This document shows positions 1 through 58,563 of a stretch of DNA of 64,000 nucleotides, piece by piece. Made by a program: the position numbers and the translations under genes. Below the pieces are notes generated by a model. That model ran no database searches. It was given only the letters and a program-made list of their open reading frames with translations, and was not told the DNA's origin. Every line of letters starts with the position of its first letter. The stretch's first letter is position 1. The stretch is taken from IMG/VR virus record IMGVR_UViG_3300048837_000398, positions 1 to 64,000 of that record. One strand, given 5' to 3'. Origin of the DNA: a virus.

Positions 1-2
1 CT

Positions 3-3000
3 AGCGAAGAAGAATATATGTCGCTAAAGGAGATCATTAGCTCAGAGTCTACTCTAGTTAGTAATCTCGTTCAGATGCTCAACAACAACTCTTCGCTTAT
101 CGAGAACTCGAGCTACCGGCGTGGTGATGGTAAGAGCGCATATCCTTTTAAAGATAACTCGTGACAATCACTTCTTCTTACGCAGCTTAATCCGCCTGAA
201 GCTCAACGCAAAGATGCGCGTGCTACCCTCAATCGTGATAACAAGCTAACGACTAACGACATCTTCTTGCGAGATAATCTCTTCGCAGTACCAGGTCCGT
301 CCAAGCTTCTTGGTTTCATAGACCACGACTCGCTCAAGACTAAGGGTAAAGATGAGTATGCTCGCTTCTTACGTAGAGAAGGTACGCGCGACTACTATCG
401 TCGTAACATAGTGAACGGCTTCTTAGATGCGTTTCGTTCTTCGTTAGGTGGAAGCTACATACAGTTCCTTCCTAATCCTTCTAATCGCCGCACTATCTCT
501 GGAGTAAGAGTTACTCCGCTAAATGCTAAGCAAGCTGAAGCTGCTCTTTTAAAGACAATCGAGGCTCAACGCAAGCGTCCTGATCCAGCTTTCAATCCGA
601 AGCTCGCTAACGACAAGCACTACACGAAGAAAGATAAGAACGGTGTCGCTAACTGGCAGAAGTTTAAGATCCCTGGTCTTTCAGGCATCCTCATTACTGA
701 CAAGCGTACGAACGCTCAACTTCTTGAGATCGCTCTCAAGCACCATGCTACACGTTCTAAGGAACTGCACGAACGCTTCTATTCAGAGATCAAGCAAGCT
801 AATACCCCTGTCGATATTTCGAAGCTAGAGTATATGGCTGAGCATCTAAAGTTCTTACCGTCTAGCTACGTAAAAGATAAAGTCTACACCAAAGCTTTGC
901 GTAAAGCTAAGAAGGCTAAGCAAGACACTACTAAAATGGTAGCAGACCGTGCTAAAGTAATCGAAGAGATGACTGCGAAAATGCTCGATCTTTTCTATAT
1001 CAACCACACGGTCAATCAGTATGCGCTCTCGCAATGGCTCTATGGTGACGAAGCTTTCTTCGCTTCTAAAGAAGTAGAGACTAAGCGTATTCAAGTTGCT
1101 ACTGCTACTTCTAAGAAAGTTCTTGTCGACGAAAAGTATGGACTTCCACTCACCTCAAGAGTTGGTGTGTTTGCTGACATCAAGACAACTGTACCAGAGT
1201 TAGAGGGCATGCGCAAAGACTCGTTAGGAGATAGCTTTGACTCTACTGATGCTGAAGGGTTTATGCTACCTTCTTTCTATTCGAAACTAGCATCTGCAGC
1301 AGGTATCGAGTCTGACACAGACATCGTGCTTAAGCCAGTTTACTACGCGATCAAAGACGGCATTCCGACCGCCATCAAGTATTCTGCCAAAGTTCTTACT
1401 GACGAGCTCACTTCTAAGTTTCCACACCTTAGGGCACTTCGTGATTTTATGGAGTCTAACAAACTCGATCAGATGGTAGCTGAGTCTGCTGTTAAAGTAG
1501 GTACTCCTAAGACGCTACTAAAGACTGACGAGTTCGGGCTCATAGATCCTATGTCCTTTGACGATAAAGCGATCATCACGATCGACAACGAGTTCTTAGG
1601 CCTACAGCTTAATCCTGCACACGCAGTAGAAACGTCAGTTGCTAACCCTTCGCAAGGAACGTCAGTAATTAACACTAATGGGCAGAACGAAGCTGAGACT
1701 GCTCAACTCTACGATCTTAATTCGCTAGTTATTGATCTGGGTCTTCGCGATCTAACACGTCGACTCAAGCTCACTCGCAAAGGAACGCTCACTCAAAAGT
1801 CCCTGTTCGAGATTCGGAGAGCACTTCTAAAGACAGCTGAATCTATACCTGGTAACCGAGATCTCTATTATCTTCTTTCGCATAAGGATGAGAATGGTCG
1901 CTACGACGTACCGATGTCTCTGCCACTCATCGCTAACAAAGTAATTTCTAATCTTTCGTCTATATTCTCGAAAGACTCTGTAGCATTCCGTTTCGCAGGA
2001 TCTAAGCTCGTACTTCAATCAGACGTAGGTACGCGTAAGTTCTACGACGACGAAGGTAATTTAGTAGACTCTTCGCTCAAATTCAAGGATGAAGAAGGCT
2101 ACACCGAAGTGTTTTTACCGCACCACTATCGCGAGTTCTTTTCGACTGGTGACAAGATCCAGATGTCTGGTAAAGGCAAGGACGCTATGGTCGGCTTCCG
2201 TATCCCTTCATCTAACTATCACTCGCTGCTCGCTATCAAGGTAAAAGGATTCTATCCGGCTCCTACTGCTTCAGAAGGTAACATCGTGATAGCGCCTTCT
2301 CCTATCGTCTACTATCATGGTTCTGACTACGATGTAGACACACTCTTCATCATTCGTAAAGAACTACAGAAAGAAGCTACTGACTTACAACTACTCGTAG
2401 CAGAAGTTAGGGATACCACCAACCTCGATCTTTCGATAGCAGCTAACGAGGTAATCGGCTTCAAAGGCGAAGAGTCTCACCGTGTAGAAGGTAAATATCT
2501 ACACTACTTCTTAGAAGACATCATCATATTGTACGATCAGAAGATAGAGACTCTTCGAGCTAACGTCCTCAATCAGACTCTTACGATACAAGAACGTAAG
2601 CAGCTCAATAACCAATTAGACGTCCTAACCGATTCAGCCAAGAAGCTAACAGACATCGCGCGTACGTCAGCTAAGAATCACATCGTCTCGCTATTCTCTG
2701 AGAACTTACGCGATCCTAAGAATCGTACTGACCTTCTTACTCCTATCTCGTTCGAGCAAGTAGCGTCACTTAAGTCTCGAAAAGTTACTGAAGAGAATGT
2801 CGAAAGCTTACGTGAAGCTGACGACTCGTTAATGGAAATGTGGGCTAAGCTCGAAGCTGAGAAGCGAGGAGTCACGATCTCTGAGTTCCCTACTCAAGAA
2901 GAAGTTGACGAGCTTATTTATCCTGAAGGTGAGTTGACAGACTTCCTTACGCAAGGAGAGATCAAATCTAACACCGACTCTGGTGGCATGGGTATCGGTA

Positions 3001-6000
3001 TCGCAGCTAACACCCTAGGCGCTGTAGCTCGAGCATTCTCTCAAGAGCGCATTACTTCGATTAAAGACACCACTACGGGCGAGATCTTCCTCGAGAAATC
3101 GCTAGAAGCACAGCAACTGTTGAAGGCTAACAAGGCTACAGATTTCGAGAATCTTATAAAGGGATCTGATCGTTATGTAGTCGAGACACGTGCTACTCCT
3201 AAGTTGCGTCCACCTACTAAAGGTAGAAGCGAACTAGATCTGCGTGTAGACGGGCACAAGCTCTCAGAGTTCAGGCGTAAAGCACTAAACTTAGAGACTG
3301 GCGAAGTTCTGACACACAACGGCTACGACGTCAACATCTTCGAGACTTTCGATACAATCGAGAACTTAGCGATAGACAACGTCAAAGAACAGAAGCTCTT
3401 TATACTTGGCTTCAATAATAACAATGCTAACGCGTTTCTCTCGGCTCTTGCTTTTGGCATACCTCTGAAGAATGTTTCGAAAATATTTAGAACACCATTC
3501 ATCGAAGGACTGTTCTCAGCTGGACGTATTTACGACGACAAGTACACCTATCATTTCGACGATATGATTAACGAGTTGGCAACATCTTTCTTAGAAGATC
3601 GTGGAGCTTTCGAAAAAGGATTGACTCAAGCTACTAACAAGCCTTCGCTATTCAAGTCGATAGAGAATGCGTACAACGCCGGGAACGATCTCAAAGCTAC
3701 TCTTAAAGTAGAGCTGTCTAAAGTACACACGTACTCAGCAATACTCGATGGTGTTTACACAGGCAAGATCACTGGTGTAGCTAAAATGGTTTCAGACTAC
3801 GCAGCTCTAAACAACGTCTTCAAGCTTTCGCAGATCGGGCAACAGCTCTTTAAGCACGCGCAGATCCTGTCGATGTTGAAGCGCTATCCTAACTCTAAGC
3901 ACAAGATAGATGGTGTGCTTAATGCTGTAGACAGCCTCGTAGAGTTCGAAGCTACAGAGCAAATGCACAAGCAGATCTTCAAAGACTACGGCTACAAACT
4001 TCGCGAGCACTTAGCTGCAACCTCTCAAGAGTATATTGAACTAGCTAAGCGCGATCAAGCTGCTGCAGATAGCTACTTAGATAAACTGATGAGAGAGCTT
4101 AAGAACTCAGATCTGTATGCTGCTATGCCTACAAAGCTAGCGAATGCTTCGTTCACTAACGCTCTTCTACGTCGCTCTATCGCTAAGCGCATGGTGCCTA
4201 CTTCGTCTAACATATTCGAAGACAACAATATCTTACGCATGCCGCACGTATTCTCTGCGTATCGTGGACTTGTTCAGCTTAAAGCACTTATCGAGAACAC
4301 GTTTGCTATGCACTATCCAGAAGTACGTGAGTTCGCTGAGCACACCTTAGATCGTTCGCGTCTGTACGTACTTCCGTTCAAGCGCTACCAAACTATCGAG
4401 CGTATCCAAGAGAACTATCTGAACTTCATTTCGTCAGGCATGACTCTCTACTTCGGAGATAACAGCTTCGAGCTCTCGATAAAAGACACTACGATTAACG
4501 AAGAGCAATGGACACAAAGCTTTGTCTCACGCTTTCAAACGATGGCTGCAGAACATCCTAACAACTTAGTGCTCAACTCGACCGAGATTATTACGAGCGA
4601 TGTTGGTGTCAAGAGTTTAGCAATCACTGCTGACAAAGTAAAGAACGAAGAGTCTGTCGAACGTTTACGTGATTCCTTCAGAGAGCTCATGCGAATCGAT
4701 CATGCCTTCGCTCTAGACTGGTTTAAATATGCGCTCATAACTAAGGGCTTGTTCTTCGATCGTACGAGCTTCTCGCTACTCTTTCCTGAATCGTGGGCAG
4801 TTGCATATGGCAAGTCTCTTAATGATCGCTTAGAAACCTTGGTCCCTCGCGACAATCCAGCGTACACACGCCATACGGCTAAGATTTTAGCAGACGAGTT
4901 TCTGTTCCAATATCTGCGGCGTAAACAAGAATCACTTCGTTATGTGAGTGGTATTTCACCTAAAGAAATGAGCGAGTACGTCGACGCTAAAGGCTACACA
5001 AAAAAAGTACTTAGCGGAACAGATGTTTTCGAGGATCGCACTATACATTTTGATCTCAAGTTTTTGACTACAGAAGGCACTCCTGATTTCATCCGTACCT
5101 TTGACAAAGCAGTTTATGCTAAGCACGCAACTTGGGATGGAGCCTCCTACTATCGAAAGATCGCGATGGGCTCTAAAGACAACCTGCTGAAGTTCAACAT
5201 CAACTCTCTACAGACTGGAGCACTTAGCCTCGCCAAGCTACTCGATCCTTCGATCAAAGTCATAGACTCTGCATCGATAGTAGATGGTAAGCTGCGCACA
5301 GGAGAAGCACTAGAGATAGGCACAGAATTCTACATTCACAACATGAACGAAGCTTCTCCTCGCTCTCTAACGAAAGCTAAGGTGACTGCTAGACTAGGAG
5401 ACTTCCACGGACTCTACCAATTTAAATGGAAGAACGAAGGCTCTTATTCGATCACTAATTCAGAACTAATCGAAGCTTCAGCAGCTGATCTTGCTCCTCT
5501 GCAAAGTGCTGATAACGCTAGAGCTGCGATAGTTGGAAACGCTTCAGCTAGCTTACGGGCTGCTAAGAATAGTGCTCGTGAAAATGCGATCGCTCTAGTT
5601 AGACTAGACCAGATGACTGATCCAGCAAAATCCTTAGGGCTCGACATAAAAGATGTGTCTGAACTCTCTGATGAGCTGCTCACTACGTATGTCTTAGATA
5701 TCGAAAAGAAGATAGCGTCTATTCCTAACAACACTCTAGTCTATATTAGCCAAGACTTGCTTACCCCGCTAATGGAGAACAGTCCGTCTATCGCTCAGAG
5801 ATTTGCTCAAGCCATCTTCAACAAGACTAAGTTCGCTCTTCCTATTCTTAACGAGGACGTGCAAGACACTGTTTCAGCTACAGCTAAGCTCATGATTAAG
5901 CGAGCGACTTTCTTAAAAGCTGTCCTGTCTAATCCAGTGCACATGGTGAAAACTGGTGACGCCTGGACGATCGATATCAAAGCTGCTAAGGCTGACGGTT

Positions 6001-6209: not shown

Positions 6210-9200
6210 ATGATTTGCCCAAATAAAAACTCAAAAGAGTGGCAAGCTTTAGTAGACAGGGTGGGCGAAGATTACGCTCACCTTGTTTTTGAAGCTGAAA
6301 ACACGCCACTAAGCCCGAGCTCTATTCTAATGACTATGCGCGACCCACTCTTACGTGAGATCGAAGCTAAAGTGTTAGCAGCTCCACAATATTTCGTAGC
6401 TAAGTATTCTGACTACGGTTTCAAAGCTCTCGGTAAAATAGCGACTGCCGAAGAGCTCATTCAGCTTTTTTATGCTCGCGCAAAGAATATCGGTGGTACG
6501 CTAGAAGGAGACGTCATCAAAAAAGATAACGCTAACTTCTTGTTGTTCCCCGAAACAAAGCAGACGTTTCAGGCTGTTCCTAATAAGGATGTGCCAGCTA
6601 GGCTAAAGGAGTCTCTCGAGAATCTGTTCGAGCGTTCTGGAGTTCCGTTTGTCGTGATAAACGATGAAGAACAAAAGTTCAAAGGGCGCTTCATTAACGA
6701 CGGAGATGATCGCATAGTGATTATCAATTTAGCGTATGCCGAAAGTTCTACTCCTTTTCACGAGTACTATCACCCTTTCGTACGCGCGCTATCACTCACT
6801 AACCCGATACTGTTCGATACAATTTTAACCAAAGCTAAGACGCTAGCCGTAAAGCCAGACACTGATCCTGAAGAGTTGGTTGTCGAATACCTCGCTAAGC
6901 TCAAGGACTCTGAGAGCACTCTCCAAAGGTTTAAGCAGTGGGTGATGTCTTTCATCGCTCGAACGTTCGGTAAACCCAAAGTAACTGGGGCCCTCAACAA
7001 TCTTTCGGATCTTCTGACTTTCTTAGAGACAGATCTCGAGAAGGTTACGCTTTCAGAGACTACGCTTACACGTGCTGACTCTGATGTCGAGAACATTCTT
7101 AAGAGCTTGAGGGAAGGCGGAGTTTCCTACAAGTTCAACAAAGACACTACTAACACAAACTATATCGATGCGATCACTAAGCTTTCGAAAGAGCAGAACC
7201 TGACTACGGACGATACTTCTCTTTACTATCGAAACGAAGCTGGGGAAGAAGTGGCGATACGTCTTTCTTCTTTCGTAGGTGACAAAGAGATGGGAGAGTT
7301 CTCGCGTAAGTTCGCGAATAAACCTTATCCGTGGCCAGAGTATCAGGCTCGTCAGATCTTCAAGGGTCAAGGCTTCGATGTAGGCGATACACCTAAAGAA
7401 GACATAACTGCGACTATCTTACTTAACGGTAAGCAAGTTTCGTTTAGCGATATTCTTACTAGCCTTGAGAAGCAGTTCGGGCTCAACCGTATTTACGGTA
7501 AGATGGTGCATGCATTCCTTCAATTTAAGATGGAGCAAGATCCTGCTAAGAAAGCTCAAGCTCGTCTAGAAGCTAACAAGTGGGCTCTAGAACTAGGCAC
7601 TCCTTTTGCTACGCTCGAAACTCACACTGAGCTGGTCGAATACGAAGAAAACTTCGACAAGGTTCTAGCAGCTGCCCAAATTAACTTAGAAGGAGCTCGT
7701 CCAGACAAAGTGACTCCAGAGGTTACAGTGATGTCGAAGATTCTTAAAGATTCGTCAGGTAAGTTCATAGGTACTACCATCGACTCGTTGGTTCAGCACC
7801 CTAATAACGACGTCTCACTACTCGACTGGAAGACAGGTGATCTTCTTAAAGACGTCAACACTACGATCATGATGCAATATGGCGAGCGCTTAGGCATCGA
7901 AGACTCGAAGCTGAATAGGGCATACTTAGAAGTAGCGATACGTGCGATCATTCTTAAAGAGCACTTCCCGAACATGCGCTTCAGGAAGGTAGCGATTATC
8001 AAGCTTTCGAAAAAAGGTAAGCACTCGAGGTTGGAGGTAGATCTTAACCCGTTCTTCAGAATGCTCGAGATCTACTATAACGAGACTAATCCTGAGATAG
8101 CTAAGCAACTAAAAGATAGTGGGCTCCTAGAAACTGAAAAGTACTTAGGCACTAAGGGAGCACTCCTTTCTGCAATTCCCGGACAGCTACAATACGCTCC
8201 ACTAGGAGAGCAAATTCAGCACGTGCAAGCTAGGCTCGAAGGTATATACGCTCGAAACACAGAATTAGAGATAAAAAAAGATCCTGAGCTTTCACGTCAA
8301 GTTAAGATGTATTCGGATGCTCTTCTAGAACTCAAGAAGTTACCAGGTGTAGACTTGGATGCGGACCTCGAAGATATTCCTGCTACTACTGGAACACTCA
8401 AGAACTTATCAGACATAAAGAACGCTAAGATTCAAGTTCTTCATCGCGACATCTTGAAGGCTCGTCACAACGCTAACAAGCGTATTCAGTCGATAGTCGA
8501 TGAACACGACAAGCTCTCGCTGCAAGTTGTTGCTGAAGCTACGTCAAGACCTATCAAGATACTTCGTAAGCTAGCTGATGCAGGGTTTATTGCAGGACTG
8601 TTCGTTTCTCCGGGTATGGTAGTCACTTCGCTTGCTCTAGGCTTGCTACTGCGTCGACTCGATACTAACACAACTAAAGTGTTCGGATTCATGTGGAAGA
8701 AGTCTGAAGACCCTGGTCGCCAAGGATACTTCTTGAACACGACAGATTTCCACGACGGTAAGCAGCTAACTCCTACGCAACGTAAGTATCGCGACTACTA
8801 CGTCAGTCGGATGCACGAAGTCTACGCGTCTACTATGGAAGAAAAAATAGCTGAATTCGAAGGTGGGTTCGTACAGACACGTGGCGAAGTAAACAAGCTT
8901 CCGCCTACTCTTCCGCCCGACTTCATGCCTCGTGTACCAGCTACTCTTTCAGAGCTTCGCGAGAACGAAGGCTTCTTTTCTAACTTCATGGGCTTTCGAA
9001 CATCTTTACGCTACGTAATACGCAAGCACCTAGGAGACTACACTAAGCAGACTTCTAACTACGACGATCGCCAAGCTCTACCAGTCAAGTATGTTGCACA
9101 CTCTGGAGACCTCAACGTAGAAAGTGCTAATCACTCTTTCGACCCTACACGAGCTTTCGCGCTTTTCCTAGGTAACCTCGTCCACAAGCAAGAGTTCGAT

Positions 9201-52415: not shown

Positions 52416-52660
52416 CAGCCAACCTATCGTTTCTAGACAACGAAGTACTGCTCTATCACTCGACACTCCAACTAGAGAGTGTGAAAGATGTCGACAAAGC
52501 GCTAGACGCAGAGCTCTCAAACTTAAAGATGGCGATATTCGCTCACATCTACAAAAACCGTCCTTCAGAGTGGCACGAACCAACGCCGCTTCCTAACACA
52601 AACTTACTCAATGACAAAGAAAGTTATTACAGGCCCATCACTCCAGACGTCACTACTTAA
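52409..52660 (+). CDS. Hypothetical protein
   Basis: ORF in operon context. Confidence 0.5.
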
Positions 52661-55202
52661 TGGCGTAAATACTATTGCTAATGCAGTAGGATCAACTCTT
52701 GGCCCACTAGGCCGTAACGTAGTTATCGAAACTCCGTATGGCGCAACAACTGTTACTAAAGATGGTGTTACAGTTGCTCAACAAATTACTCTCGAAGATC
52801 CTCTCGAGAACTTAGCTGTTCAAATTATTAAGCAGGCATCAGAGCGCACAGCTTCTATAGCTGGCGACGGACCACAGCCCCTTTATTCGAAAGTTCTCAC
52901 ACCAACTGGGTGGACAACTCTAGGTGAACTAAAAGTTGGAGATACCATTTGTGGTACAAATGGTACTACACAAAAGGTCGTAGGCTTTTACCCTAAAGGA
53001 CCCTTACCTTTATATAAGGTTATTTTTTCGGACGGAAGAACAGTTGAATGTTCGGAAGACCACTTGTGGACCGTGACCACTAATTACGGAAAACAAAAAA
53101 CTCTGCCTCTAAGTGAGCTTATAAATCAAGGTTTGTCGTTAATTAACGACGACGGCCACAATAAGTACAAGTTTTTTGTTCAAACTACTGAAGTAGAATT
53201 TGATGAAAAACCCCTCCCCTTAGATCCTTACTTTCTAGGAGTATTGCTTGGAGATGGTTCCCTAAGTGGAAGTGGTGCAATTGAGCTCTCGTTAGGCCTC
53301 AAGAAGGCACACATACTACAAAAGCTTCTTTTGCCAGAAGGCATGAGTTTTACGATCGCTTTAGATGAATCTAAAAATTATATTAGAGTTAGATTTCAAG
53401 GTGCTGATAAAAATGGGAAAAATCTAAAAGACATTCTTTTAGATTTAAATTTGCTCGGAACACATAGCGCTACAAAATTTATTCCGGACCTATACCTCTA
53501 TTCGAGCTTAAAATCTCGCGAAGCCCTTTTACAGGGTCTCGTAGACACTGATGGCCATGTTAATCTTCGTGGCAAATTCGAGTTTAGTACTATAAGCGAC
53601 CAACTATCTGCCAACTTTCAAGATTTGGTACGCTCACTGGGCATTCAGACGCACTACACAAAGTTAGACCGAACATATTCTGGCGGATATTCTGTAAACC
53701 CAGTCCATCGGATAGTAGAATTAAAAGGGTACAAACACGGCATCAAAATAGTAGATGTTCAACCTCAAAACAGATTTGAGGAGATGGTCTGTATTAAAGT
53801 TTCAAACGATGACCATTTGTACATCACAGATGAATATGTCGTCACACATAATACAACTACTGCAACAGTACTCGCGCAAAAGCTTTATTCCGAAGCACTT
53901 AAACTAGTTAACTCGGGTGTCGCCCCTATCCACATCAAGAACGATTACGAAGCCTACTTAAAAGCTATCGCCCCTCTTATCGACGATAATACGCTCCAGA
54001 TTACGACGCCTCAAGACACGTACCAGATCGCACTTATTTCTGCGAATAACGATCCGACTATTGCATCTCTTATTTCGACAGCTATCGAATACGTAGGCAA
54101 GGATGGCTCGATTACACTCGAAGAGTCTAAGACTGGCGAGTCGTATGTAGAGCTAGTAGACGGTACTTCTTTCGAGCGCCCTTACGCTTCTCCGTACTTC
54201 GTCACTAATCCGCCTAAAGGGACAGCTGAACTCACCAATCCGCTCATCTTTATTACGGATAAGAAACTTCGCTACAATCAAGAGCTTCTTCCCGTACTCA
54301 ACTTAGCAGCCGATAACTCACGTCCACTAGTTATTATTGCAGACGATATCGAAGGTCAAGCTCTTCAGACGCTCGTCATCAACAAGCTTCGCGGTACTAT
54401 CGAGGTGCTAGCTATCAGAGCTCCTTCGTACGGTGAGAACCGTCTCGAAGTACTTAAAGACCTCGCAGCCCTCACTTCAGCGAACCTTATTACAGAGCTC
54501 TCTGGAACACGTATCGAAGATGTTAAGCTCACTGATTTAGGTGAAGCGGCTAAAGTGATTTCTTCGCGTCACCAAACTATCATTGTTGATGGTGTTCAAG
54601 ATCCCACCCAAATCGAAGCTCGTGCGAGTACAATCACACAGCTTCTCGCTCAACATCAGCCAGACTCATATTTCTATAAGCAGCTCTCTACTCGACTAGC
54701 TAAGCTCACTGCTAAGGTTGCAGTGCTCAATGTAGGAGCACCTACAGAAACCGAGCTTAAAGAGCGCAAAGCCCGTGTTGACGACGCACTTCGAGCTACT
54801 ACAGCAGCTATTAAAACTGGTTTCGTAGTTGGTGGCGGTACGCTTCTCGCTAAGCTCTCGACTACCCTCCCTAACGATCTTTCGTCTAAAGCCTTCGCAC
54901 TAGCTCTTCAAGAACCTCTTCGTCGAATAGCTGAAAATGCTGGACAATCTCCGTCTCTCGTCCTTTCAAAAGTACTTGAGAACCCTTCGATTTCATTCGG
55001 TTATAACGCTTTAACTGACTCCTATACAGATCTTATCGAAGACAAGGTTATCGATCCTGCACTCGTAGTGAAGCAAGCGCTACTCTCCGCAGTTTCAGCA
55101 GCAAACATGCTCATCCTATCTTCGACTGCAGTCTACAATGTAGATCGCACTCCTCCTTATTCTCCAGGCTCTCTAAATGATTTTGAATCGCACGAATCCT
55201 AA
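52611..55202 (+). CDS. groEL: GroEL chaperonin precursor containing an intein (536 aa after splicing)
   Basis: [37 protein letters not shown] and VIDPALV motifs. Confidence 0.95.
52872..53852 (+). mobile_element. Class 3 intein with LAGLIDADG endonuclease in GroEL (327 aa)
   Basis: Starts [17 protein letters not shown] triad: EDHLW, MVCIKV, VVTHN/T. Endonuclease motifs GVLLGDG and GLVDTDG. Confidence 0.9.
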
Positions 55203-58200
55203 CGACTTCATAGTCGAGATTCCGCAGCATCATCCGCTTTCTTCAGCATATTTATCGTTCTGACGCGAGCAAAAAAGACGTTCAATAGAAGGTTATTGGG
55301 TAGGTGGCATTTGAATGCCTCCTGCCCTTTACTATTATGCGAACTTCGGAACAATCAAGAAGAACCGCTCTAAGTATTCAGCTTCCTCCAAGATCTATGC
55401 GCGGCCTGACTTACGAGACATCGAATGGGATCTATTCTATCTCTATACAGAAGCGCGAGGATTCTCAGGATTTTCTCTCGACCCCGTCTACTCCTCTAAC
55501 AAAGCTCTACTTGACGCAGAAGTAACTGACGATATTCTTCGACTTCACCTGCCATCTACACTCAAGGCTGACGGATCTCGCAAAACATTCGTTCCAGCTC
55601 GCGAGTATATGCGCGCTCTACACCCTACCCAACTAGGCGCACCTCTTTTCGAAAATGAAAAGCAGAACCTTCTTCTTCTCGGTACTCGAGATCTCGGCAA
55701 GTCGTATGCTGTAGGTGTAGGCATGGTTGGCCACATGTTCCTTTTCGATGGCGCAACTTCTTATTCAGAGTCTCGCGAAGAGCTCTCTCCAGCTGAAGTT
55801 CTTGTAGGAGCATCTGTTTCAGACAAATCTCGAGATCTACTTAAAAAAACAAAAGACTCGTTCGATTTCTTACCGGGCAAGCAAATCATCGCCTCACGCA
55901 CTTACCCTTCTCCTTTCTCTAAACAGTACACAGGCTCGTGAGCAGTTAATGCTGATATCAAGGCCGAATATAAAAAGAAGTCTGATGGGCGATGGGAGAC
56001 AGTGGGCTCCCGCTCTACGATTAAGCATCGCTCTTTCAACGAAAACCCGTTTGCTGCACAAGGTACTCGCCCTGACTTACTTGTCATCGAGGAAGCTGGT
56101 CTAGCTTCAGAGCTCAAAGACATCTTCGTGCACACTGTCGACACACTGCGTCGAGGTCTAACTAAGACTGGGACATTGCTTTGCTTGGGTTGTGTCGTAG
56201 CTGGCACTAAAGTTTGAACATCTAAAGGTAAACTTCTAAACGTCGAAGATCTTACCGTAGAAGATGGAATCTTAGGTTACTCTGGATCAGCAATTGTACC
56301 TCTACCAATCACTAACATTAACCCAATCGCAGTAAAACAGTGTGTCAGAATTACGACCGAAGGTAACAACGTTATCGAAGCCTCTATAGACCACCCATTT
56401 TTAGCCTCTTCTCGTAAAGAACGGCTTTCTAACACAACGTACAATTATAATTTCAAGCAAGCCGCTACACTAAACGTAGGTGATTACTTAGCGCTAGCTA
56501 ACGAAATCCCGTTTTTTGGAGAAGTCGAGGAAAAAGACGCTTACTTAATAGGGCTGATGCTCGGTGACGGCTACTTTAAAGGCTCGTCAGTTTCGATCGA
56601 TAACGACGAAGTCTACAACTTTATTTCGACTAACTACGAAACGTCTACACACAAAAGGTACGAAACTAAAAAAGGGACGCTGTACTACGAGCTCTACATA
56701 AAAGGGATTAGTCAAAAGCTAAAAACTCTAGGGCTAACGGATCTTACTAAAGAACAAAAAGATTTTCCGCTTACAGCACAAGAATTTTCGAAAGAGTCTT
56801 TAGCACTTCTGCTAGCAGGTTGCTTCGACTCAGATGGAAATGTCAATAGGTCTAAAAAGACAACACGTGTTGTTCTAACTAATATTTCGTTAAAACTACT
56901 TCAATCGGTTAAATGGGCCCTTTTAAAATTTGGCATCCATTCTTCGATCTACAAAGAGAAACGAAACACGAAGCCCCCTAAAGGCTACGAAAATCAGCTA
57001 CCGCATATTTACAGACTCTACATTTCTAGAGACGCAGACGTCGCCACGTTTAAGCAGTACATTCCAATTAAGCATTCTAAAAAAGTCGAAACTCTAGGCC
57101 AATTTACTCCAGGTAATCGTCAAGTTGGAAAACACTTAGGAGTCTTCACACTTACAAACCGCCATGAAGACGAAACATTCTTAGCCGATAACTCGTCGAT
57201 TTCTAACTTTAGATTCGTACGCGTGACTTCTGTCGAGGCAATTGGTGAAAAAGAAATCTACAACCTAACTGCAGGAGAATATCATAACTATCTAGCCAAT
57301 GGCTTCATCACCCATAACACAGGTGGAGACATGCAGAAGGGCACGCTCGCAGCTTCCGAAATGTTTTACGAGCCCGAGAAATACGACTTCCTTTCTTTCG
57401 AAGATACTTACGAGTCTCGAGGCAAGATAGCATATTTTGTGCCCGCCTACTATTCTCTCGATAAGTTTCGAGACGATTGGGGTTACGTAGACATTCAAAA
57501 AGCTACAGAAAGCCTACTGCTTAAACGCAAGAAACTAGCTGGTGATTCTGGAGGTTCGTTCGCTCTCGACCAAGAGATGCAGTATCGTCCTCTCGTACCT
57601 TCCGAGATGTTTCTTTCGAAAGCAGCTAACATATTCCCGTTCGCAGAAATACGCCGCCGTCTCTCAGAACTACAGACTACGAAAGAATACGAAATGTACG
57701 AGCACAAGGTCAACCTATATTTTGACCCTTCTTCACAGTATAATGGTGTGTCGTACGCTATCGACCCCTCGCTAAATCCGATCACACGTTTCCCGTGAGA
57801 CTCTGACGACAGAGAAGGTGCAGTAGTTATCTACGACTTCCCGCACTTAGAAGATGGTAAAGTGCCTCCTGGCGCTTATATCATAGGATGCGACCCTTTT
57901 AAAGATGATTCACCTGACGGGCCCTCACTCGCCGCTGTCTACGTCATGAAGACGTCTAAGTACTTTGCGACGATAGGCCACGACGAAATAGTAGCATCTT
58001 ACATAGGTCGTCCATACATGGGTAAGAATGCTGTCAACGAGATCCTGCATAAACTAGCGCTCTTCTACAACGCTAAAATTTACTTCGAAAATTCTGTCGG
58101 CAACGTAAAAGACTACTTCGAAAAAGTTCGACGCCTCGACCTACTCGCTACGCAGCCAACTACAATTTTCAACAAAAAAGCTTCGTTCCTTTCGAATCAA

Positions 58201-58563
58201 TCGTTCATCTATGGCTACCCCATGCCAAACCAAAAAGTTAAGTGGGAAGCTCTGCAGTATCTACGAGCTTGGCTACTTACAGAACGTTCAGACTCTAAAA
58301 GAAACTTAGACCTCATCAAAGATCCAGCCCTTCTTCAAGAACTTATTTCGTTTAACCTCGACGGAAACTTCGACAGAGTCATGGGCCTCACTGGCTGCAT
58401 AATAGGGCTCGAAGAAATATATAACCTACAAAGACGCACCGAGCATTATCAAAAAGAATCTTCGGAGCTAGACAAAGAATTTACTAGACTTATTGTCAAC
58501 AACAAAAAACTTTTCCATGAAAATTTTTCCAAAACAAAGGCTAGCGTACTCTGAGAAAATTAA
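55177..58563 (+). CDS. terL: Terminase large subunit precursor (intein; 6 in-frame TGA)
   Basis: YLSF*REQKRRSIEGY...I*MPPALYYYANF; GTRDLGKS; LVIEEAG; G/TGGDM; GCDPF; GNFDRV. TGAs at 55261, 55312, 55939, 56215, 57796 and 58552. Confidence 0.92.
56191..57318 (+). mobile_element. Class 1 intein with LAGLIDADG endonuclease in TerL (376 aa)
   Basis: Starts CVVAGTKV*T; SIDHPF; GLMLGDG and GCFDSDG; ends YNL...ITHN/T. Confidence 0.92.

Follow-up and report, generated by a model that had tools for sequence, protein, structure and literature searches.

The GroEL locus

This study concerns an insertion, read as a class 3 intein, in the GroEL gene of an uncultured crAss-like phage. The phage is represented by the IMG/VR virus record IMGVR_UViG_3300048837_000398, which is 103,011 bp long, carries direct terminal repeats and is rated complete; its first 64 kb form the stretch of DNA that was analysed, hereafter the window. 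The portal protein encoded there is 27-31% identical to the portals of crAss-like phages of Bacteroidota, and the phage carries its own GroEL gene. This gene occupies positions 52611-55202 on the plus strand and encodes a precursor of 863 amino acids (aa), with a TAA stop and no internal TGA. The precursor is recognized as GroEL in two separate stretches, by NCBIfam PRK00013 (E value 3e-156, 520.9 bits against a cut-off of 397) and by PRK12849 (520.6 bits against a cut-off of 352), while the equivalog model TIGR02348 scores 513 bits, under its cut-off of 582, as expected for a diverged phage copy of GroEL.

The two GroEL stretches are separated by 327 aa encoded at 52872-53852 (plus strand; precursor residues 88-414), which lie between Gly87 and Thr88 of the mature protein. 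Upstream, the N-extein of 87 aa (52611-52871, plus strand) ends in SIAGDG, the first half of the GDGTTT nucleotide-binding loop, and downstream the C-extein of 449 aa (53853-55199, plus strand) begins with TTTATVLA. Removal of the insert leaves a GroEL of 536 aa (863 - 327) in which AGDG/TTTATVLA is restored (here and below, the slash marks a splice junction). The closest relative in the viral contig collection, L096, is a contig of 103,169 bp that runs collinear with the window, the nucleotide identity being about 67%. Positions 3740-4000 and 4001-5350 of L096 align with the N-extein and the C-extein at 71% and 68% aa identity, respectively, and the GroEL gene of L096 is uninterrupted and lacks exactly the 981 bp of the insert, so that window positions 52871 and 53853 correspond to the adjacent positions 4000 and 4001 of L096. 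The insert is thus in frame, at a conserved site of the host protein, missing from orthologues, and its removal restores the host motif, as is the case for inteins.

The GroEL gene lies directly upstream of the genes for the large terminase, the portal and the major head protein, and heads the packaging and head module of this phage.

Intein anatomy and class 3 signature

Class 3 inteins are marked by a non-nucleophilic residue 1, by a triplet of co-varying residues, namely Trp at position 12 of block B, Cys at position 4 of block F and Thr at position 5 of block G, and by Thr or Ser, rarely Cys, at position +1, their C-terminus being His-Asn (PMC2807308). All of these marks are present in the insert. 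Its first residue is Pro1 (codon CCA at 52872-52874), and block B reads Cys60-Ser61-Glu-Asp-His64-Leu-Trp66 (53049-53069, plus strand), where His64 occupies position 10 and Trp66 position 12, the latter being the W of the Trp-Cys-Thr (WCT) triplet. The predicted initiating nucleophile, which provides the C of the triplet, is Cys307 of block F (Met-Val-Cys307-Ile-Lys-Val; codon at 53790-53792, plus strand), aligned to the block F Cys of the MP-Be intein of mycobacteriophage Bethlehem and of the MchDnaB1 intein. Block G, together with the following residue (53844-53855, plus strand), comprises Thr325, the T of the triplet, His326 and Asn327 (53844-53852), and then Thr+1 (53853-53855).

A LAGLIDADG homing endonuclease domain is nested within the splicing domain at about residues 112-288 (53205-53735, plus strand), with approximate borders taken from a structure model. 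Both of its catalytic aspartates are intact, namely Asp128 (53253-53255) in motif 1, LLGDG, and Asp227 (53550-53552) in motif 2, LVDTDG. The Pfam families Hom_end and LAGLIDADG_3 match the insert above their cut-offs, while Intein_splicing is below threshold on the window copy and matches just 2 of 45 relatives. The insert can be aligned over its whole length with phage inteins, in 617 phage records and with E values down to 3e-36, and such full-length alignment with hundreds of inteins, together with the precise lack of the insert in L096, shows that the observation is not due to chance.

An AlphaFold model of the insert, built on 45 family members, reached a predicted local distance difference test score (pLDDT) of 93.9 and a predicted template modelling score (pTM) of 0.90. 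The folds that it matches best are those of TliVMA, PI-SceI and PI-PfuI, all of them intein endonucleases (E values 8e-17 to 4e-10). Foldseek identified intein and Hedgehog HINT domains among its relatives. Within the model, the HINT part resembles class 3 mini-inteins, and the middle domain resembles I-DmoI and the endonuclease domain of PI-SceI. The guanine-plus-cytosine (GC) content of the intein is 0.394 against 0.44-0.47 in the exteins, that is, 5-7 points lower. Taken as a whole, the insert is predicted to be a class 3 intein whose LAGLIDADG homing endonuclease is intact. A first-pass annotation of the window had described an insertion of 327 aa between AGDG and TTTATVLA that leaves a 536-aa GroEL, with a Pro start, a Trp-Cys-Thr triad, a LAGLIDADG domain and an HN/T end; the reading of the DNA confirms the insertion and the residues that were named could all be located, with Pfam support for the domain.

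Comparison with characterized inteins

The same annotation had assigned the insert to class 3, in the ATP-binding loop of GroEL, and this assignment is borne out by the complete signature and by end-to-end alignment with the experimentally characterised class 3 prototype from mycobacteriophage Bethlehem. The prototype has Pro1, Ser62, His65, Trp67, Cys320, Thr339-His-Asn341 and Thr+1 (PMC2807308). The window intein and Bethlehem gp11 (AY500153) align junction to junction at 27% identity (E value 2e-33), with both junctions, the H-x-W motif, the block F Cys and THN/T in register; His64-Leu-Trp66 (53061-53069) falls on His65 and Trp67 of the prototype. The two inteins share Pro1, the block B Ser, His and Trp, the block F Cys, Thr-His-Asn, Thr+1, a nested LAGLIDADG domain, a phage as host and a position in the nucleotide-binding loop of an ATPase, and are of similar size (341 aa for MP-Be, 327 aa here). 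They differ in their host protein, which for MP-Be is a terminase or helicase-type P-loop ATPase, whereas the site in the window is the GDG/TTT loop of a chaperonin and not a Walker A motif.

Among inteins with solved structures, the best sequence relatives are the class 3 inteins MchDnaB1 (6rix, 6riy) and MsmDnaB1 (6bs8), and gp41-1. In MchDnaB1 and MsmDnaB1 the H-x-W and C-x-x-V...HLY...THN motifs are aligned with those of the window intein, and the HINT domains superpose with template modelling scores of 0.71-0.80 when normalised to the target; unlike the window intein, both are endonuclease-free mini-inteins that have Ala as their first residue and reside in bacterial replicative helicases. 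The endonuclease-bearing inteins PI-SceI, TliVMA and PI-PfuI share the architecture of a HINT domain with a nested LAGLIDADG domain but start with Cys, follow the four-step class 1 route and lack a WCT triplet.

The closest relatives found outside chaperonins are the inteins of PhoH and PIN-PhoH proteins of uncultured phages, with profile E values down to about 1e-131 (P0249). They have in common with the GroEL intein the start xQPLxxxVLTPxG and a THN end followed by T or S, as seen in the junctions GxGK/AQPL...THN/T and LPG/PQPL...THN/T. Unlike the GroEL intein, they occupy another host protein and other sites, many of them start with Ala, and often two or more are found in one protein. At least two such relatives are present in each of P0130, P0144, P0249, P0252, P0261 and P0266, one in the Walker A loop (GxGK/AQPL) and one at LPG/PQPL. 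Two longer proteins, P0215 (1662 aa) and P0218 (1896 aa), show intein profile matches in 5-6 stretches and have two and four THN junctions, respectively, which points to several inteins in each.

A family of inteins at the chaperonin site

The insert is not an isolated oddity: at least 271 distinct chaperonin-site inteins, all from metagenomes, were gathered at the same point of chaperonin genes. Of the best 120 full-length relatives taken from 5.8 billion proteins, about 113 are GroELs of 822-930 aa with the insert in the same place, and the ends of the insert are near-invariant, starting directly after GDG and finishing in THN/TT followed by Thr or Ser. A junction-specific DNA pattern scanned over the viral contig collection found at least 80 contigs, all with chaperonin junctions, and most of their inteins are 311-340 aa long. 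Seven contigs (L002, L044, L056, L058, L061, L074 and L077) carry mini-inteins of 139-150 aa without the endonuclease domain, and an eighth (L035) carries an intein of 263 aa with a truncated endonuclease. A profile of 45 members searched against 1.84 billion cluster representatives gave 7,348 matches with E values of 1e-30 or lower. Of the best 150, about 100 show a chaperonin architecture, in which the intein starts at residue 82-109 of a protein of 800-1,020 aa, and the other leading matches are proteins with several inteins, PhoH and PIN-PhoH among them. The GroEL intein is thus one branch of a large clade of phage class 3 inteins.

Conservation was counted in an alignment of 154 unique family members, where His326 and Asn327, being set by the extraction pattern, provide no independent evidence. 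Pro1 is kept in 153 members, His64 in 154, Trp66 in 151, Cys307 in 154 and Thr325 in 153, and the catalytic aspartates of the endonuclease in about 95% (Asp128 in 145 of 150, Asp227 in 146 of 151), while overall identity within the family is only about 50%. Retention of these residues at such a level of divergence amounts to purifying selection on the splicing and endonuclease residues across the family. Two further cysteines are also widely kept: Cys60 (53049-53051), beside block B, in all 154 members, and Cys27 (52950-52952) in 149. A Cys at the position of Cys60 is found as well in the gp41-1 intein (CSEEHL), which resides in another host protein.

In the set of 271 inteins the first residue is Pro in 268 and Cys in 3. 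The inteins that start with Cys, found in P0107 and two more proteins, resemble the few WCT inteins that possess an N-terminal nucleophile (PMC2807308).

Presence, absence and mobility

The intein is distributed patchily among related GroEL genes. In addition to L096, eight more viral GroELs with 37-51% identity in the C-extein are empty at the insertion point. The six closest GroEL exteins (65-75% identity) are free of the intein; among the GroELs that bear one, extein identity reaches only 51%. Compared with the window copy, mean identity is 52% for the inteins as against 36% for the exteins, and the two are weakly correlated (r = 0.21). This pattern fits an intein that homing has spread horizontally between diverged GroEL genes of phages and that then loses its endonuclease, the mini-inteins at the same site being the usual stage of decay, and the intein of the window probably is, or was recently, mobile.

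Like the window phage, phages such as OBP and AR9 possess their own group I chaperonin (cited in PMC5434244 and bioRxiv 10.1101/2020.12.14.422802). Unlike that of the window, the phage GroELs examined in the GenBank phage collection are intein-free: no intein at GroEL was found in its 50,697 records, and the GroEL matches examined are uninterrupted genes of about 1.56-1.61 kb. No record of this collection covers at least 80% of the 863-aa precursor used as query, no near-identical DNA was matched there, and the crAss-like phages found with the portal are absent among the GroEL matches listed.

For cellular organisms, the junction pattern was scanned over 185,579 prokaryotic species, each represented by one genome, and 14 matches were returned. 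Eleven of them, in genomes such as those of Streptomyces, Mycobacterium and Acidobacteriota, fall in unrelated reading frames and were discarded as chance matches, and two are fragments of thermosome genes. The single GroEL match lies on a contig of 7.8 kb (L082, JAGYLR010000027.1) assigned to 'Bacterium isolate M50B98', a bacterial metagenome-assembled genome (MAG). The contig itself is phage DNA that encodes small and large terminase subunits, the GroEL with the intein and a portal; as in the window, the intein-bearing GroEL adjoins the terminase and portal genes. Accordingly, no bacterial chromosomal groEL with an intein was found among the 185,579 species genomes, and this speaks indirectly against an earlier suggestion that the groEL of the host is a target of the endonuclease.

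Thermosome carriers

The two thermosome fragments lie on MAG contigs assigned to Nanoarchaeia (L084, positions 2-520, minus strand) and Woesearchaeota (L087, positions 3-419, minus strand). Both encode N-exteins of a group II chaperonin that end in VGDG and are followed by PQPLY(S/A)K, after which the contig ends. A search seeded with L084 recovered three complete proteins of 854-865 aa (P0123, P0124 and P0125), identified as thermosome alpha at 644-678 bits (cut-off 450), in which an intein of 320-329 aa lies between GDG and TTTAV or TTSVV. These inteins have Pro1, H-x-W, the block F Cys, THN/T and both LAGLIDADG aspartates. One thermosome gene with the intein is located at positions 3443-6007 of contig L171.

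A FastTree phylogeny of 211 inteins, with two PhoH inteins as the assumed root, places the three thermosome inteins in one clade (support 0.81) that is 14 nodes deep among the GroEL inteins. The placement, with moderate supports along the path, suggests that the intein passed a single time from group I into group II chaperonins. Both MAGs that hold the fragments also contain an uninterrupted thermosome gene on another contig. The genes next to the intein-bearing thermosome genes on L084 and L171 lack informative matches in Pfam or PHROG and show no recognisable hallmark of a cell or a virus, no tRNA was detected beside them, and the viral contig collection yielded no close relative. Thermosome subunits are known from the genomes of some archaeal viruses (PMC5434244), and the carriers may be DPANN chromosomes, strain variants or archaeal viruses.

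Proposed splicing mechanism and mobility cycle

On the evidence given above, a mobile class 3 intein whose LAGLIDADG endonuclease is intact very probably resides in the GDG/TTT phosphate-binding loop of the equatorial domain of this phage GroEL. Class 3 inteins depend on the block F Cys as the residue that initiates splicing, and their branched intermediate at block F is thiol-labile (PMC2807308). By homology with the mycobacteriophage Bethlehem intein (PMC2807308), Cys307, aided by His64 and Trp66, would attack the peptide bond between Gly87 and Pro1 to form a thioester-branched intermediate, from which the N-extein would be transferred to the side chain of Thr+1. Cyclisation of Asn327 would then release the intein, and an O-to-N shift would yield the 536-aa GroEL with its loop restored. 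For mobility, when a related phage co-infects the cell, the endonuclease would cut its intein-free GroEL allele at the motif, and repair would copy the intein into that allele, a process known as homing.

The GDGTTT loop of GroEL binds nucleotide phosphates. With 327 residues placed inside this loop the precursor should therefore be inactive until it is spliced; chaperonin activity should require splicing, the ATP site being split beforehand. The position of the GroEL gene beside the terminase and portal genes fits a role in head morphogenesis. The proposal of the first-pass annotation that capsid folding depends on splicing goes further than this: from the biochemistry of GroEL it follows only that the unspliced protein would have a broken ATP site. 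The intein itself is best read as a selfish passenger that is tolerated because it splices and not as an adaptation of the phage.

Alternative explanations

Several points weigh against the interpretation as a class 3 intein that is active and mobile. That it splices, that Cys307 plays its assigned part and that the endonuclease cleaves are all deduced from homology, and the endonuclease of the window copy may be inactive despite its intact motifs. The WCT triplet is a marker and not a proof of mechanism, since engineering it alone into a class 1 intein did not give splicing (PMC7664689). The family is not uniform, as Trp66 is replaced by Phe in 3 of the 154 aligned members, beside the 3 Cys starts among the 271 inteins. 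Furthermore, no intein more than 59% identical to the window copy was found; recent homing of this particular copy is not documented and its arrival is undated.

If the insert did not splice at all, the GroEL gene would in effect be a pseudogene, or its product would have a permanently split ATP site. The close phage relatives that use an uninterrupted GroEL, and the lack of a visible benefit from the intein, would agree with this, but the frame of 863 codons is intact, all catalytic residues are present in a family that is under purifying selection at those positions, and the exteins still score highly as GroEL, which makes a dead insert very improbable. Even less credit can be given to a route like that of class 2 inteins, in which the +1 residue would attack the N-terminal junction directly and the block F Cys would remain unused. 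As in class 2, the N-terminal nucleophile is missing here; class 2 (KlbA) inteins, however, have Cys+1 and no WCT triplet (PMC2807308), whereas the window intein has Thr+1 and a triplet that is complete and conserved, and its nearest solved and characterised relatives belong to class 3.

A different possibility, which would add to the interpretation as a class 3 intein and not replace it, is that splicing is conditional and delayed until a signal such as redox state, zinc, temperature or late infection is perceived, with Cys307, Cys60 and Cys27 as the sensor. The invariance of Cys60 and the near-invariance of Cys27 beside the catalytic Cys307 are compatible with such a switch, as is the location of the gene, which opens the late module for packaging and head formation, and a mycobacterial class 3 DnaB intein is reported to be reversibly inhibited by oxidative stress and zinc (PMC6195587, PMC7360933). 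On the other hand, there is no sign of regulation in the sequence, the cysteine at the Cys60 position of gp41-1 points to a trait of the lineage and not of chaperonins, and sister phages manage without the intein, whose patchy presence is that expected of a parasite; the switch is therefore considered unlikely. An extended version of this idea, likewise doubtful as a whole, holds that a chaperonin-adapted intein lineage crossed between phage GroEL and the archaeal-type thermosome by way of the GDG/TTT loop, with conditional splicing, for instance redox- or metal-sensitive through Cys307, Cys60 and Cys27, timing a viral folding machine. Its two components differ, as crossing between the chaperonin groups is supported by the data and the switch part is unsupported. 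The reading as a selfish class 3 intein that splices and probably moves by homing is thus the one retained.

An intein in the adjacent terminase gene

The next gene, which encodes the large terminase (55177-58563, read with TGA as Trp), contains a second intein of 376 aa and of class 1 type at 56191-57318 on the plus strand. It starts with Cys-Val-Val-Ala-Gly after the extein sequence LLCLG and ends in Thr-His-Asn followed by Thr-Gly-Gly, and Pfam recognizes in it both LAGLIDADG_3 and Intein_splicing. Its identity to the GroEL intein is 28%, its GC content is 0.40, and one of its codons is TGA (Trp). The related contig L096 precisely lacks this intein too, window positions 56188 and 57319 corresponding to its positions 6347 and 6349. 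Recoded TGA codons like those of the neighbouring genes were also considered for the GroEL intein and rejected, because the GroEL gene is without TGA and both Trp codons are TGG.

Implications

Inteins have been catalogued mainly in proteins of replication, repair, nucleotide metabolism and packaging. The view of the first-pass annotation that a chaperonin is not an established intein host still holds, as no paper naming GroEL, Hsp60/Cpn60 or the thermosome as a native intein host was found in a literature search whose coverage left most subscription journals outside; where candidate papers mention both GroEL and inteins, they treat them apart. Here a known kind of intein occurs in a new host protein, and its mechanism, architecture and evolutionary behaviour are ordinary for class 3.

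To our knowledge, cellular GroELs of all kinds show hardly any variation at the GDG/TTT site, and their protein motif is the same as that of the phage gene. That no bacterial chromosomal groEL with the intein was met among the 185,579 species genomes raises the question of what shields this essential, highly expressed protein of 14 subunits. In viral metagenomes, chaperonin-site inteins explain the 'GroEL' gene calls of 850-930 aa, and the several hundred natural class 3 sequences provide a pool for protein engineering. For the inteins themselves, the family at the chaperonin GDG/TTT loop extends the range of host proteins to a protein-folding machine and indicates that a nucleotide-binding loop other than a P-loop can act as a homing site.

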